A DNA stretch of 64,000 bases from a virus (IMGVR_UViG_3300010354_000051:54720-118719); one strand, 5' to 3'; positions 37,442 through 50,981 are shown, counted from the first letter of the stretch. Made by a program: numbers and translations. Notes: a model not told the origin generated them from the sequence alone.

Positions 37442-39001
37442 ATGGCTCGCAGATTTCGCCAACAACCCGAAATAGTTCTCAACTCTGAGAAGCCCTTGAC
37501 AGAACAACAGCCCAGACGGGTTGTATATGTCGAGATGTTTCGGGCCGGCCCGCAGATCAGTTCTACGGGTCAGAAGATGGTGTTTTCGGAAGAAGACCTT
37601 GATCAGGTAGTGAATAGCTACCGGCCAACCAAACACGAAGCACCATTAATTATCGGCCATGACCAAGATGACAGTACACCTGCTCTAGGTCATGTCCGAG
37701 AAGTTTGGCGGAAGGGCAAATCTCTGTGGGGTAAGGTAGAACTTACCCCTAAAGCAGAAAAACTAATCCGAGACGGGGTGTTCAAAAAGGTAAGTAGCTC
37801 GTTCTACTTGCCCGATGCGGACACTAATCCCACTCCGGGTAGTCTGTCCCTTCGCCATCTCGGACTTGTGTCCATACCGGCGGTAAAAGGACTCACAGCC
37901 TTTTCCGAAACCCTACCCGAAGGCTCGATTACAATAACTCCAAGGGAGTCTTCTATTTCATTTCAAGAAAATCACCCAACTATGGCTAGAAGAAAAACCG
38001 AAGCCCCCAAGCAGCAAGTTGTCGATCACGCTGACGGCAAGGGGATGACCATTAATGTGAATATTAATGGTGTTAAGGCTAATGAGCCGGACGAAGTAAA
38101 CGAAGCCGGCTTTGAAACCCAGAATACGGGCGCTGCTGCTCCGTATGACATGGAATATGGGGATGACATGAACCCTGAATCTCCCGCACCCGGTCAGGTC
38201 GATCCGAGCCTTCAGCGAACCGACATGGTCGAAGGGCCTGATGGTGGCGGCGACATGGGCGATGAGAGCGATGGCCAGGGCGACCCGATTCCGCCCGATG
38301 GCGAAGGCCCGGACGGTGACCAGGGCGATTCCGGCCCGGACGACAGCGGTGTGGACGACATGTCCGGTGACGACGACGAGAAAGTTGCTTCAGATCTCGC
38401 CTCTAAGTACACCGAAGAACAGCTCATTATGGCCCTGTACCAGCTTGCTCAGTCTTCCAGCAATATGGCTGAAGATTGCAACATGCCCGGTTATAGCGAA
38501 GAAGAGCCTGGTGAAGAAGAGGTTTACACGGCGGAGTTCTCTGAGACTCCCGACCCTCTAGCTGAGAAAGTTGCCCAGCTTGAAGAAGAACTAGCCACTC
38601 AAAAGCGTGCTATGAGACAAAAAGAAATCTCTGATTTCTGTGAGACTCTGTACGATGATGGTAAGTTGACTCCCCAGGTTGTTTCCAGTGGCGATCTTGT
38701 TCGCTTTATGGAGACCTTGAACTCCAAGAACAGTGTGAACTTTAGCGAAAGCGGCAAAGTTTCCCAGTTCGAGTTCATGAAGTCTATGCTGGACAGCCTG
38801 CCCTCCATGGTCAGCTTCAGCGAAGTTGCAACTCAAGCCAGTGCTCCGAAGAAAGCTAAGCCGGTTCGGCCCAATGCCGAAGGTTATGTTTACGACGAGC
38901 GCAATTCCGAATTGCACTCCAAGGCTCTGAGCTACGCAGAGAAGAACAATACGGACTATATGTCCGCCCTAAGACTCGTCATCTCTGACGAAATTGACTG
39001 A
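37442..39001 (+). CDS. Mu-like prohead protease/scaffold (gpI-like)
   Basis: EMFRAG, APLIIGH, ALGHVREV..KGKSLWGKVE, FKKVSSSFY, LRHLGLVSIPAVKGL; acidic linker and coiled-coil scaffold C-terminus. Confidence 0.85.
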   Translation: MARRFRQQPEIVLNSEKPLTEQQPRRVVYVEMFRAGPQISSTGQKMVFSEEDLDQVVNSYRPTKHEAPLIIGHDQDDSTPALGHVREVWRKGKSLWGKVELTPKAEKLIRDGVFKKVSSSFYLPDADTNPTPGSLSLRHLGLVSIPAVKGLTAFSETLPEGSITITPRESSISFQENHPTMARRKTEAPKQQVVDHADGKGMTINVNINGVKANEPDEVNEAGFETQNTGAAAPYDMEYGDDMNPESPAPGQVDPSLQRTDMVEGPDGGGDMGDESDGQGDPIPPDGEGPDGDQGDSGPDDSGVDDMSGDDDEKVASDLASKYTEEQLIMALYQLAQSSSNMAEDCNMPGYSEEEPGEEEVYTAEFSETPDPLAEKVAQLEEELATQKRAMRQKEISDFCETLYDDGKLTPQVVSSGDLVRFMETLNSKNSVNFSESGKVSQFEFMKSMLDSLPSMVSFSEVATQASAPKKAKPVRPNAEGYVYDERNSELHSKALSYAEKNNTDYMSALRLVISDEID

Positions 39002-39166: not shown

Positions 39167-39880
39167 ATGGCGACTGATCCTCGTTACATGTCGTTCGACC
39201 ACCAGTATGTAGAGACCGTAACCGTCTCTGATGCTACCGCTCTACTTAATGGTGTAGAACGATGCCGGTTTGTTAAGAGAACTGGCGCTTACCCTGTTGC
39301 CGGTGGCTATGCCGCTGGCGTGAACATCTACCGTATTTACGGTCAAGGTGAACTGACTGACAAAGGCTATCAGGTTGTCGAATCTGATATGACCGCTCTT
39401 ACTGGTACTCTGTCTATCAGCACCGCTGGTGTTGTGACCGGAGCCGGTACTAATTTCGATCCGCAAATGCCTGTCGGCACTACGATCAAAATTGGTGCGA
39501 ATCTTTACCGGGTTATGAGTGTAGCTAGCGACACTAGCGCTACCGTATCTCCCGCCCCTGCTACTTCCATTTCCGGCGCTACTGCCTATATCTGGCCTGG
39601 TACTTGGGATGGTAAGTTTAACCCCAGCACTACCCCTAACAAGCCTGGCGTATTCCCGTACCAGGGCCTGATGAGTGTGGTAACGACTGGTATTGCCATT
39701 GTCGAAGTAGATTCAGCTTCTACTTTCGCTGTAGACGACGCTGTTTATTCCACCACTTCCGGTACTGCTTCTAGCACTGCTGGCTCGGGTGTAGTGATGG
39801 GTCGCTGCTTGGATGTAATCAGCGCTGCTGGTGCTGGTCAATACATTCGGGTGAAGCTCGGCAACGAGACTGGCGCCTGA
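39167..39880 (+). CDS. Capsid cement/decoration protein (DUF2190-like) with inserted domain
   Basis: VVTTGIAIVEV...AVDDAVYSTTSGTA...MGRCLD...AGQYIRVKLG; lies between the protease and major capsid genes. Confidence 0.65.
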   Translation: MATDPRYMSFDHQYVETVTVSDATALLNGVERCRFVKRTGAYPVAGGYAAGVNIYRIYGQGELTDKGYQVVESDMTALTGTLSISTAGVVTGAGTNFDPQMPVGTTIKIGANLYRVMSVASDTSATVSPAPATSISGATAYIWPGTWDGKFNPSTTPNKPGVFPYQGLMSVVTTGIAIVEVDSASTFAVDDAVYSTTSGTASSTAGSGVVMGRCLDVISAAGAGQYIRVKLGNETGA

Positions 39881-39911: not shown

Positions 39912-41813
39912 ATGATGAATCTTGATCAGGTAAGGGTAATTGACCCCATCCTAACTCAGCTAGCACAAGGTTAATTGTAGCCGTGCCAAAAAGAAATTTT
40001 TGGTATTATAAAGGGGTGAATTGCTGGAAAGCCTAAATCTCTTTGGTTATGGAAACTGTGTATGAGCAATTTATCGAGCATTGTCGCTTGATAGAAGAAA
40101 CAGATAAAGTGTCTGGGGTCTATATGGAAAAACACCACATTTTGCCCAGACATTCTGGAGGAACAAATGAAAAACAAAACCTCATTTATCTCACCAGAAA
40201 AAATCACATTCTAGCTCATTACTACAGATGGATAGCTTACAACTCTAAACCTGACAGGTTAGCTTACCTTTTTATGAGGGGAGACATAACTGGAGAGGCT
40301 AAGAGAGAAGCTAGTAAACTCGCACAAAAAACCTGGACATTTGAAAAAAGGTCTGCATGCTCTAAAAAAGCCTATCAGACTATGCTTAAAAGAAAATCGG
40401 GGATTGCTGCTAGGGGAGAAACTTGGAGACAAAATGTCTCAAAAGCCTCTAAGAAAAACATCCTCCAAAACAGAAAGAGCAGATTTACGAATAAAACAGT
40501 TAGTCTGCAAAACTGTTCTTTTAGGTTTAAACATGGATCCAGGGTCCTTTTTATAAATCAAAAGGACTTTTCTGACTTTTCAGAAACTAGCAAATACCTG
40601 TGTGTTTTGTTGGGAATAAAAGTTAAGAAAAGTGAGCACTTAAAGTTTATAAGACTAGTGCGCGGCGAAAGAAAAGTATTCCATGGCATCAAAGTAGACA
40701 TGGTGATCAGCAGCCAAGCCGAGAATGGGCAAAGTTTTCTCGGAAGGTTCAGAGACTAGGAGAATGAGTCCCAACAATAATTTCTCCCACGAGTGCCCCT
40801 CAGCCTCAAGGCTGAAGATATAGTCCGAACTTACAGGAAACTGTAAGAAGTAGAAGATAAAGAGCTTCTACGATAACATTCTGTACAAGAACGCTGACGG
40901 TGTAGCTACCTTCTTCGCTCCTTCCGTTTCCATGAACGTTAGAGCGGGTAGAACTTTGGTATTCGGTAAGGAGGCTTTTGCCGCTCAGAACTTCCTACGT
41001 TCTCCCGGCACTAACATCCAGAAGATCCAGAACCAATTCGGCACTCGGAGCTTCGCTCTTCGTCAAGAAGCCATTAGCTGGGAAATTGCCGAAGAAGTAG
41101 CCGCTGAGGCTAAGAATGGTGCTGCGGCTATCGACCTTCGCGCCTATGCCGCCAAGGACGCCGCTAACCGTCTAATGCAGTCTTGGGAAATCCAAGTAGC
41201 TGCTAAAGTCCAAGACATTACTCAGTACGAGACCGGTAACGTACTCGATCTGGCCACTTACAACGGTGGTGCTGATCAGTTCAACAACCCGACCTCTGAT
41301 GTGGAAGTCCTAATGGACGCCATGAGAGAGCAAATTCGTAGCCAGATTGGTTGCTATCCCAACAAGCTCGTTCTCTCTCCCGAAGCCTTTAACGCCCTCA
41401 AGCGTAACAAGCGTATTCGTGACTTCATGCAGCGCGGTATTCTTGTCAACGAGAAGACTCTGGCCGAGATCTTTGGTCTTGACGAAATCCGCGTCGCCCG
41501 TCGTCTGAAGCTGAACCAGAACACTGGTGAACTCGAGAATATCTACAGCAATGTCGCTATTCTGTTCTACCATCCTTCCAGCTCAACTGACGGTTTCACC
41601 CCCGCCCTCGATGCGAACTATGGTAATCCGGCCTTTGGGTATACCTATACCCTGTCCGGCTATCCTATCGCTACTCCCGAGCGCTTTAACGTCGAGCGTC
41701 GCACCTTCACTGGTGACATTCTTGTCGAGCGTTCATTCGAGCTTGTTGGCATGGGCGAAACTGGCCGTTGCGGTGCCGGTGCTGTCTTCCTCAACCCCGT
41801 AGGCACTTACTGA
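39912..41813 (+). CDS. Major capsid protein (Mu-like/HK97 fold), spliced: join(39912..39971,40884..41813), 329 aa
   Basis: Exon 1 MMNLDQVRVIDPILTQLAQG joins in frame to exon 2 YKNADGVATFFAPSVSMNVRAGRTLVFGKEAF, restoring the capsid N-terminal motif DPxLTxxAxGYxN. Confidence 0.9.
39972..40883 (+). mobile_element. Group I self-splicing intron (IA-like, P7.1 extension), 912 nt
   Basis: 5' exon ends in U and intron ends in G; P AATTGCTGGAAA 40019, Q GATCAGCAGCC 40705, R GTTCAGAGACTA 40747, S AAGATATAGTCC 40815; P1, P7, P8, P9 and P10 pairings are visible. Confidence 0.93.
40049..40759 (+). CDS. Intron-encoded HNH homing endonuclease
   Basis: EKHHILPRHSGGTNEKQNLIYLTRKNHILAHYYRW; lies inside the intron. 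Confidence 0.85.
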   Translation: METVYEQFIEHCRLIEETDKVSGVYMEKHHILPRHSGGTNEKQNLIYLTRKNHILAHYYRWIAYNSKPDRLAYLFMRGDITGEAKREASKLAQKTWTFEKRSACSKKAYQTMLKRKSGIAARGETWRQNVSKASKKNILQNRKSRFTNKTVSLQNCSFRFKHGSRVLFINQKDFSDFSETSKYLCVLLGIKVKKSEHLKFIRLVRGERKVFHGIKVDMVISSQAENGQSFLGRFRD

Positions 41814-41840: not shown

Positions 41841-41866
41841 GCCCGCCCTAATAGGCGGGCTTTTTT
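41841..41866 (+). terminator. Rho-independent terminator after the major capsid gene
   Basis: gcccgcc-ctaata-ggcgggc followed by T6. Confidence 0.85.
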
Positions 41867-41875
41867 GTTGAAAGC
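41867..41875 (+). promoter_or_regulatory. Putative late promoter motif GTTGAAAGC
   Basis: Immediately after the capsid terminator, upstream of ATG 41900. Confidence 0.65.
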
Positions 41876-41899: not shown

Positions 41900-42691
41900 A
41901 TGCCACTTTACACTCCACCTCCAGACTCTTTCGGAGTAGCTAACAACTGTACCCCGGCTACAGTTGACTACTTTATAGAGGTGTTCGGGTTTAATGAGGC
42001 TCTTGAGCTATCCAGATTAGAAGACCCGACTGCAAACACAATAAACTATAACAGAATTCAAACAGCGTTAAATGATTCTGCCGTACTGATTAATAACTAT
42101 ATCGAAACTGCTCCGCCCCAGGGGAAACTGCTAATCGCAGGGTCTTACAGAAGGACTCAGGCAACTATTGCCAGATGGTATCTAGACACACTGCGGCCTA
42201 GAGAACAAGTCATATACGCTTACGAAACCGCCCTAAAACAGCTCGAATTATGGTCTAGTAAAGCGTCTCCTTCAGCCGGATTGAAATGGCAAGAGGCTTA
42301 TCGGTACTGGACTGGTGGTTGCTCTATGGTAATGACCAATACCCAGAGAGACCGATCATTCACTGATACATCACTAGCGAGGTGGGAGATGAGATGGGGT
42401 ACTAACAACAGATGGAACCCGTACAAGAGAAAAGACGCTGTGGTTATTGATAATGTAGCTAGTAGACAACCTAGCGGATCTATTGACAGAAAAAATGTCA
42501 CGCTGATTGGTGATTCGACCCTGGCTGTAAACAGACTATTTGACGAATTGGAGACAACCAGGGACCTGGCCTCGTTCTCCGATACTCAAGACGCTGCTAC
42601 ACCGGTCGAAGGAGATGTCCTGATTGTTAAGGACACAGATGGCAACATAACCACTTATGACGGTGGTCTACAAGAATCGGACACTTTCTAA
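41900..42691 (+). CDS. Head-tail joining protein, Mu gp36-like (DUF1320)
   Basis: IQTALNDSAVLINNYI...IARWYLD...YETALKQLE. Confidence 0.65.
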   Translation: MPLYTPPPDSFGVANNCTPATVDYFIEVFGFNEALELSRLEDPTANTINYNRIQTALNDSAVLINNYIETAPPQGKLLIAGSYRRTQATIARWYLDTLRPREQVIYAYETALKQLELWSSKASPSAGLKWQEAYRYWTGGCSMVMTNTQRDRSFTDTSLARWEMRWGTNNRWNPYKRKDAVVIDNVASRQPSGSIDRKNVTLIGDSTLAVNRLFDELETTRDLASFSDTQDAATPVEGDVLIVKDTDGNITTYDGGLQESDTF

Positions 42692-42692
42692 C

Positions 42693-43043
42693 ATGTCACT
42701 TAACCAGCCCTACGGTTACGACCCGTTCAACCCAGCCCAGCCTGGCGGTGCCGGACTGCTAACCATACTACCAAACTCCTCCGGAAGCGCTTGCAGTTAC
42801 AACTCTTCCGGACTGCAAGGACTTAACCATTCCTCATTCGGGGTGTTTCCCGACTCGACTCCTTACAAGCAGTCGGCTAGCGAGCTGCGTCAGTATATTA
42901 TCGCACTGGAAGGGACTAGAAAGCTTAGGGATCTGTCCGATGTAAACTTTACCCGGTCTCCACAACCTGACGACCTGCTAGCGTATAACTACACCACAGG
43001 GTATTGGGAACTGGTAGATTTTATTTCAGGGGGAGAGTTTTAA
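42693..43043 (+). CDS. Small virion protein
   Basis: LRDLSDVNFTRSPQPDDLLAYNYTTGYWE motif typical of phage fibre and structural repeats. Confidence 0.55.
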   Translation: MSLNQPYGYDPFNPAQPGGAGLLTILPNSSGSACSYNSSGLQGLNHSSFGVFPDSTPYKQSASELRQYIIALEGTRKLRDLSDVNFTRSPQPDDLLAYNYTTGYWELVDFISGGEF

Positions 43044-43439
43044 TTCTTCCCATTTGCCTCCGTCAGTCGAATAATAAACTCTTTTCACACCCGATTCGGA
43101 TATGGCCAGTTGGCATGCCGGGCAGGGCTTAGACAAGCACAACTTATTTGCCTTGTTGACTCGACCAACAATCAACGTGTCGGCCCTTACTCGAGATTTA
43201 ATCAAGGCCCTGATCTCGGCATGAAGAGAGACTCGGTAAGGTTGTCCGACTCTGGCCGCAAAATTAGATTGGATAGGATGTGTCTTACCCTCTAGGTTAG
43301 TAGTACTGACTACTACTCTACCTTTCTTTAGCAATACGCATCCTACTCTCCGAGCAGAGGGTGAGGACATTGCCAACACCCTTACCTGCTCGGACATTTT
43401 GTCAGCTACGAGCTGAACTTTTTCGCTTCGATCAGACAC
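43026..43439 (-). CDS. Cytidine/dCMP deaminase family protein
   Basis: VGCVL, HAE and PCxxC (LHAEIRAL...SKPCPACQ) zinc-binding motifs. Confidence 0.85.
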   Translation of the reverse strand: MSDRSEKVQLVADKMSEQVRVLAMSSPSARRVGCVLLKKGRVVVSTTNLEGKTHPIQSNFAARVGQPYRVSLHAEIRALIKSRVRADTLIVGRVNKANKLCLSKPCPACQLAISESGVKRVYYSTDGGKWEELKLSP

Positions 43440-50724: not shown

Positions 50725-50798
50725 CGTTCCAGGAGGGACTTGAACCCCCGACCGACCGCTTAGAAGGCGGATGCTCTATCCGGCTGAGCTACTGGAAC
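50725..50798 (-). tRNA. tRNA-Arg(UCU)
   Basis: Cloverleaf GTTCCAG/CTGGAAC, anticodon loop CTTCTAA, T loop TTCAAGT; no encoded CCA. Confidence 0.95.
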
Positions 50799-50820
50799 AA
50801 AAGACAGTCGTGACTGTCAG

Positions 50821-50902
50821 TCGGAAAGACGAGACTCGAACTCGTATGCCTTTCGGCGGCGCATTTTGAGTGCGCTGTGTCTACCAATTCCACCACAATC
50901 CG
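50821..50902 (-). tRNA. tRNA-Leu(CAA)
   Basis: Long variable arm (GCC-GAAA-GGC), anticodon loop CTCAAAA, TTCGAGT; acceptor stem CGGATTG/CTTTCCG has two U-U mismatches. Confidence 0.85.
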
Positions 50903-50908
50903 ATTAGG

Positions 50909-50981
50909 TAGGGGTCGCGAGGATCGAACTCGCCTGTGGCGGATTATGAGTCCGCTGCATTCACCAGATTGCTAGACCCCC
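50909..50981 (-). tRNA. tRNA with CAU anticodon (elongator Met or Ile2/lysidine type)
   Basis: GGGGGTC/GACCCCT acceptor, GCGGA-CTCATAA-TCCGC anticodon arm, TTCGATC; lacks the initiator 3 G-C stem. Confidence 0.9.

Follow-up and report, generated by a model that had tools for sequence, protein, structure and literature searches.

The stretch of DNA considered here (hereafter, the window; 64,000 nt) makes up the final 64 kb of an IMG/VR virus record of 118,719 nt, the completeness of which is estimated at 74%. PHROG and Pfam profile searches revealed a Mu-type head module on the plus strand surrounding a major capsid gene that is split in two by an intron (Table 1). The protein encoded by the second, longer exon shares 79-81% identity with the capsids of S-TIM5, S-TIM54, S-TIM61 and S-TIM66, phages of the genus Aurunvirus that infect marine Synechococcus. 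Given this level of identity, the phage is taken to be an S-TIM5-like cyanomyovirus. Directly 3' of the capsid stop codon, at positions 41843-41868, a G+C-rich inverted repeat (GCCCGCC...GGCGGGC) precedes a T run, an arrangement that looks like an intrinsic terminator. Elsewhere in the window, three tRNA genes are found in tandem on the minus strand (50725-50981; RF00005, 64.7, 47.1 and 49.9 bits), as is a 137-aa ORF on the same strand (43029-43439) with a cytidine/deoxycytidylate deaminase zinc-binding domain (Pfam PF00383, E 4e-10).

Exon 1 of the capsid gene extends from its ATG at 39912 through a GGT codon and is directly followed by an in-frame TAA (39972-39974). The frame of exon 2 (YKNADGVATFF...) opens with the TAC that follows the last intron base, G40883, and is in frame with the ORF that is called mechanically from the ATG at 40932, yielding a 293-aa product. 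Joining the two exons gives MMNLDQVRVIDPILTQLAQG followed by YKNADGVATFF, which is exactly the N-terminus of uninterrupted homologues of 329 aa, the commonest length among 252 database capsid homologues. Indeed, two such intronless proteins (P0001 and P0015) begin with MMNLDQVRVIDPILTQLAQGYKN and continue directly into YRN/YKNADGVATFF, with their first 20 residues being identical to those encoded by exon 1. In S-TIM5 itself, the two capsid pieces are likewise contiguous. In addition, the PHROG 1005 (major head protein) profile aligns to exon 2 only from profile position 23 on, indicating that some 20 N-terminal residues are absent from exon 2; these are supplied by exon 1. The exon and intron boundaries, the in-frame TAA and the restored junction had all been proposed in a first-pass annotation made from the sequence, and they agree with the intronless relatives, in which the 329-aa homologue equals exon 1 plus exon 2.

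The same annotation had warned that automated gene calling would truncate the N-terminus of the capsid protein. This is borne out in the protein databases, where 24 of the best 120 clusters hold capsid calls of 292/293 or 309 aa. These lengths correspond to truncated calls with M37 or the exon 2 boundary as their start, and in each of the eight such clusters that were looked up, this intron lies just upstream.

Table 1. Features of the split capsid gene, its intron and the flanking head genes (positions are those of the window).
Feature	Position	Strand	Evidence or remark
Protease-scaffold	37442-39001	+	PHROG 976, E 9e-72
Decoration/cement-like protein	39167-39880	+	
Capsid exon 1, 20 codons (MMNLDQVRVIDPILTQLAQG), last base U of GGU	39912-39971	+	ORF list; intronless homologues
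P1 hairpin: exon CAAGGU 39966-39971/internal guide GCCGUG 39980-39985	39966-39985	+	U.G at 5' splice site
Group I intron, 912 nt, phase 0 between the G20 and Y21 codons	39972-40883	+	
P10: guide UUGUA in P1 loop/exon 2 UACAA	39975-39979/40884-40888	+	Covariation
P2, 7 bp, GAAA loop	39986-40003	+	2 pairs changed on both sides; recovered in MFE fold
5' core strands: P3 40012-17, P4 40022-27, P5 40031-33, P5a 40038-45	40012-40045	+	
Partner strands	P5a' 40690-40698, P5' 40702-40704, P4' 40707-40712, P3' 40795-40800	+	
HNH homing endonuclease ORF, 235 aa, in loop L5a	40052-40759	+	PHROG 655, E 6e-17
3' half of catalytic core, P5a' through P9, including J8/7	40690-40848	+	RF00028 match; covariation of P6a, P7.1, P8, P9
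P6	40714-15/40746-47	+	
P6a	40719-25/40737-43	+	
P7, GACUA/UAGUC	40754-58/40821-25	+	
P7.1, GGAGAA/UUCUCC	40759-64/40782-87	+	
P8, CAGCC/GGCUG	40801-05/40810-14	+	
P9, GAAA loop	40830-36/40841-47	+	
P9.1 hairpin (40850-56/40865-71) and 3' tail to omega-G 40883	40850-40883	+	5 of 7 P9.1 pairs changed on both sides
Capsid exon 2, 309 codons and stop, HK97-fold Mu-like major head protein	40884-41813	+	PHROG 1005, E 1e-58
Head-tail adaptor	41900-42691	+	

The intervening 912 nt present the features of a group I ribozyme. The in-frame UAA that makes up its first three bases is kept in each of the 10 variants that extend to the 5' end. U39971, the last base of exon 1, pairs with G39980 to form the U.G pair at the 5' splice site, while the last intron base, G40883, provides omega-G; these three bases are invariant in all variants. 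P1, which contains one internal A.G mismatch, is invariant in 10 sequences, and P4 (the P/Q pairing) consists of UGCUGG/UCAGCA. Each of the pairings named at first reading, namely, P1, P10, P4, P7, P7.1, P8 and a GAAA-capped P9, is present. The occurrence of the P7.1 hairpin between P7 and P3' assigns the intron to subgroup IA; the IA2 criterion is P7.1 together with P7.2, and only one covarying hairpin, P7.1, is evident in this interval, with an extra inner hairpin appearing in the P7.1 loop of some relatives. In BLASTN searches, the 3' core of the intron was found to resemble annotated DNA polymerase gene introns of Bacillus phages, as well as elements in Staphylococcus, Clostridium and crAss-like phages. 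An intein or a group II intron was considered and rejected, given the stop codons in the capsid frame, the lack of a reverse transcriptase and the group I core.

Comparison with the Rfam model RF00028, as had been suggested earlier, returned a match on the window's own intron at 40614-40847 (44.7 bits, E 7e-10) that covers only the 3' half of the core, from P4' to P9. This score lies below the gathering score of 50 bits and was seen using an E-value threshold on a small region; a search of the whole window against Rfam at gathering thresholds returned the three tRNAs only and not the intron. Both the low score and the miss in the whole-window search reflect the 650-nt ORF that separates the two halves of the core. 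In L210, a relative, the intron at this very site lacks the ORF and matched the full model at 84.9 bits (E 2e-22).

The proposed structure was assessed in an alignment of 13 site-matched introns (alignment A1), in which the 79 pairs of P1-P10, as written on the window sequence, correspond to 814 cells. With identities of only 63-74% to the intron of the window, the variants provide a good test of structure. Of the cells, 96.7% are paired, and sliding the 3' partners by 1-3 columns lowers this to 34-46%; likewise, 33 of the 79 pairs have changes on both sides, as compared to 3-6 when slid, and none of 500 shuffles reached the observed covariation score. Together with the RF00028 matches, this places the structure well outside chance expectation. 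Most compensatory changes fall in P5a, P6a, P7.1, P8, P9 and P9.1. P1, P6 and P7 never vary in the alignment and are thus uninformative either way with regard to covariation. P4 is also invariant in the alignment, yet the ORF-less intron of L229 carries the compensatory pairing UGCGGG/UCCGCA. P10 covaries with the 3' exon, being UUGUA/UACAA in the window, CGGUA/UACCG in L335, where exon 2 begins with UACCGC, and including a G-U pair in L229. In the ORF-less rows, the joint MAFFT alignment put the 5' halves in the wrong place, and the affected cells were counted as gaps.

For folding, cores from which the ORF had been deleted were re-aligned separately. Both RNAalifold on these cores and the minimum free energy (MFE) fold of the window's own ORF-deleted core recovered P2-P6a, P8, P9 and P9.1, with P7.1 also appearing in the latter, and the folding z-score was -4.25 relative to mononucleotide shuffles. 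P7, which forms a pseudoknot with P3, cannot appear in folds of either type.

The ORF within the intron starts at an ATG (40052) that is conserved in relatives and lies 6 nt past the P5a 5' strand. The final 70 nt or so of the ORF double as P5a', P5', P4', P6 and P6a, and its stop codon (40757-40759) is the UAG found inside P7 (GACUAG). The predicted product matches the PHROG 655 homing endonuclease family and was also picked up by the Pfam HNH profile PF01844 (E 7e-4), with a score of 20.1 bits against a cut-off of 21.4. The stretch EKHHILPRHSGGTNEKQNLIYLTRKNHILAH, containing an HH..N..H motif, aligns to HNH domains of solved structure, namely, those of a group II maturase and McrA; a search of PDB sequences with the endonuclease returned weak matches to the HNH motif only. 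Its closest annotated relative is the endonuclease encoded between two psbA fragments of the freshwater Synechococcus phage S-SRM01, with 47% identity across the N-terminal 93 aa. When the ORF was compared to the copy found in the L038 group, pN was 0.22 and pS was 0.77, with synonymous sites being saturated, while dN/dS within the L038 group was 0.14. The values of pN well below pS and the low dN/dS indicate that the endonuclease ORF is maintained by purifying selection. In one relative (L033:2086-3000), the ORF is frameshifted and stops after 54 codons, with all ribozyme helices remaining intact, such that this looks like a decaying homing endonuclease gene within a still-structured intron.

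To describe the distribution of the intron, its insertion point (site B) was inspected in related sequences. About 70 of 80 related viral contigs have no intron at this position. Across the 94 loci examined, 12 contain a site B intron, 75 are empty and seven are cut off by the end of the contig, with intron sequence being found immediately upstream of exon 2 in all seven. The occupied sites hold introns of two sizes, namely, those of 913-915 nt with an ORF (L033, the L038 group and L335) and those of 266-269 nt without one (L210, L339 and L229), and among the site-matched variants compared, none is closer than 74% identity to the intron of the window. Empty sites, intact ORFs, decayed ORFs and ORF-less forms at a single position are the pattern expected of a homing element passing through a cycle of invasion, decay and loss.

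Two sequence patterns were also used as probes. A pattern based on the guide region returned mostly chance matches on metagenome contigs, with eight loci being real. The J8/7-P7 motif TGAAGATATAGTCYGRACTT proved too generic to serve as a site-specific probe, being shared by many phage group I introns and occurring in more than 113 viral contigs. Loci L086-L165 contain this motif (e.g., L149:6311-7846, L114 and L130), and one locus carries four copies within 1.5 kb, suggesting that other multi-intron genes may exist in unrelated phages.

Two further positions in the capsid gene of relatives are also occupied by introns. Site A, following capsid codon 8 (between R8 and V9), is filled in about 11 of 80 related viral contigs, either by a long form of 873-898 nt with a GIY-YIG ORF (Pfam E 3e-17; L004, L006, L007, L008, L022, L028, L060 and L061) or by a short form of 298-322 nt with no ORF (L030, L210 and L345). 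Site C, following R194, contains a 997-nt intron encoding a homing endonuclease of PHROG 314. Each site thus has, in the relatives, an endonuclease ORF of its own: GIY-YIG at A, HNH at B and PHROG 314 at C. The window holds an intron at site B only, one relative holds introns at both A and B (L210:829-1452), and a 127-kb contig holds three in one capsid gene (L345/L339, L345:1300-3460; IMGVR_UViG_3300035670_000044), these scoring 67.6, 82.9 and 93.3 bits against RF00028 for A, B and C, respectively, each above the gathering score. One further contig (L204:1-1500; Logan SRR22497789_392347) is chimeric, passing from mid-capsid sequence (...FNALKR) into the 5' part and ORF of a site C intron, then into the 3' end of a site B intron and from there into the capsid gene from codon 21 onward. 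As the two capsid copies on this contig differ, the assembler probably jumped between strains through a shared intron core.

The first-pass annotation had implied that an intron in a gene of this kind would be unusual. Published examples speak against this, with group I introns having already been described in phage capsid genes and other late genes. In mycobacteriophage LittleE (Cluster J), a group I intron in the capsid gene was demonstrated by RT-PCR and N-terminal sequencing (PMC3706429), and the same paper cites a capsid gene intron in lactococcal phage Tuc2009. Introns in terL are supported by RT-PCR in Shewanella phage KASIA (PMC8541194) and by metatranscriptome reads in the Jug phages (PMC12880540). 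Like LittleE, the S-TIM5-like phage considered here is a tailed phage with a self-splicing-type intron and a homing endonuclease gene near the 5' end of its major capsid gene, the intron being present in only some members of the lineage. The two differ in host and phage lineage, the present phage belonging to the S-TIM5 group of cyanomyoviruses, and in the nuclease, which is LAGLIDADG-like and encoded on the opposite strand in LittleE, whereas here it is of the HNH type and encoded on the sense strand, overlapping the ribozyme core. Moreover, splicing was demonstrated in LittleE and is deduced from sequence here.

[quoted passage not shown] Both are cyanophage IA-type introns with P7.1, a sense-strand HNH ORF that contributes core helices and a P10 of 4-5 bp. 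By contrast, the helices encoded by the ORF are P6a-P7.2 in Pf-WMP3 and P5a'-P7 here, the ORF starts in P6a in the former and in L5a in the latter, and P2 is absent from Pf-WMP3 and present here. The host genes also differ (polymerase versus capsid), and nicking was assayed in Pf-WMP3, whereas the present endonuclease is known from its sequence. As to the psbA introns of S-PM2, S-CBWM1 and S-SRM01, it is the HNH catalytic domain that is shared with the S-SRM01 endonuclease (47% identity over 93 aa); the target gene is different and the C-terminal two-thirds of the protein, presumably responsible for DNA binding, are unrelated. Finally, the capsid gene of the window's relatives, with as many as three related group I introns (L345), recalls orf142 of Staphylococcus phage Twort, a single gene that, as cited in PMC6669764, contains three group I introns (Landthaler and Shub, 1999), although the window itself has one. 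A literature search found no paper on an intron in the S-TIM5 lineage. The present case clearly adds one more instance of a selfish element with precedents in other phage capsid genes and does not constitute a new kind of system.

The capsid gene is interrupted, joining its exons restores the protein, the intervening RNA has a group I architecture upheld by covariation, its ORF is intact and constrained, and its presence is patchy and confined to one site. The conclusion that a group I intron with an HNH homing endonuclease splits the capsid gene thus draws on RF00028, covariation, the restored protein and the distribution among relatives, as the first-pass annotation had proposed. More specifically, we assign a probability of about 0.92 to the reading that a mobile IA-type group I intron encoding an HNH endonuclease interrupts an S-TIM5-like major capsid gene between codons 20 and 21, in phase 0.

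Splicing, endonuclease activity and homing would be expected to proceed as follows. The late head-operon transcript would carry the intron, and a ribosome translating exon 1 would halt at the UAA with which the intron begins and so not unfold the ribozyme, a protective role that draws on a review of bacterial group I introns in protein-coding hosts (PMC3984707). The intron would then fold, with P1 presenting the U.G pair at the 5' splice site alongside the P3-P7 pseudoknot and the P4-P6 domain, upon which exogenous guanosine would attack the 5' splice site. With the 3' splice site aligned by P10 and omega-G, ligation of the exons (...CAAGGU to UACAAG...) would restore the 329-aa capsid protein. 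The 235-aa HNH endonuclease, for its part, would presumably act on capsid alleles that lack the intron in co-infecting relatives, nicking or cutting them, with repair copying the intron into the broken site.

A dead, non-splicing remnant, separating a relic exon 1 from a capsid protein made from the internal ATG at 40932 and lacking its first 36 residues, would account for gene callers yielding exactly the 293-aa product. Such a remnant is nonetheless very improbable, as the protein encoded by exon 1 is still identical to that of intronless homologues, compensatory changes have preserved all core helices across lineages that are 63-74% identical to the window's intron, and the UAA, U.G pair, omega-G and P10 are all intact. 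The 36 residues that would be missing are, moreover, conserved in every full-length homologue. A foreign intron might also have been placed in the capsid gene by an assembly artefact, and one Logan contig (L204) does show a visible chimera spanning intron cores; yet, more than 15 contigs of diverged sequence, obtained from varied samples and assemblers (JGI, ENA, Logan and IMG/VR), share the insertion at that exact nucleotide, which makes this the least credible of the explanations considered.

The first-pass annotation had further proposed that splicing could serve as a timing or dosage switch. In such a case, the ribozyme would have been co-opted as a regulator, with the rate of splicing setting when or how much capsid is made in response to translation, energy or light. 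Capsid synthesis in this phage must indeed go through splicing, and a psbA intron of a cyanophage reportedly affects expression under high light (PMC8557907). Still, the same capsid is encoded with no site B intron in some 70 of 80 related contigs, forms with no ORF or a frameshifted ORF coexist with intact ones, and relatives carry anywhere from zero to three introns at the three sites. This pattern of gain and loss is the signature of a selfish element rather than of a conserved regulatory device, and no sensor-like extra domain was seen in the intron RNA, nor any other feature pointing to regulation. A switch of this sort is accordingly considered quite unlikely; the absence of the intron from most relatives, together with the ORF-less and frameshifted forms, fits a near-neutral selfish element. 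It also seems unlikely that splicing of the capsid pre-mRNA is non-neutral and acts as a checkpoint tying capsid output to the translational or energy state of the host, or that the nucleases of the three sites serve competition between co-infecting S-TIM5-like phages through marker exclusion at the capsid gene.

As a mobile intron of a familiar kind, the element leaves existing knowledge of how such elements work unchanged. Its significance lies in part in annotation, with approximately one fifth of the database capsid clusters of this lineage having been shortened to 293 or 309 aa by gene callers; such truncated calls introduce wrong N-termini into capsid phylogenies, marker-gene surveys and proteomics of S-TIM5-like cyanophages. 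At the same time, one site in this lineage displays the homing cycle as a compact natural series of empty, intact, frameshifted and ORF-less forms, and the three sites, each with a different endonuclease ORF, are useful for studying how introns spread within and between phage genomes.
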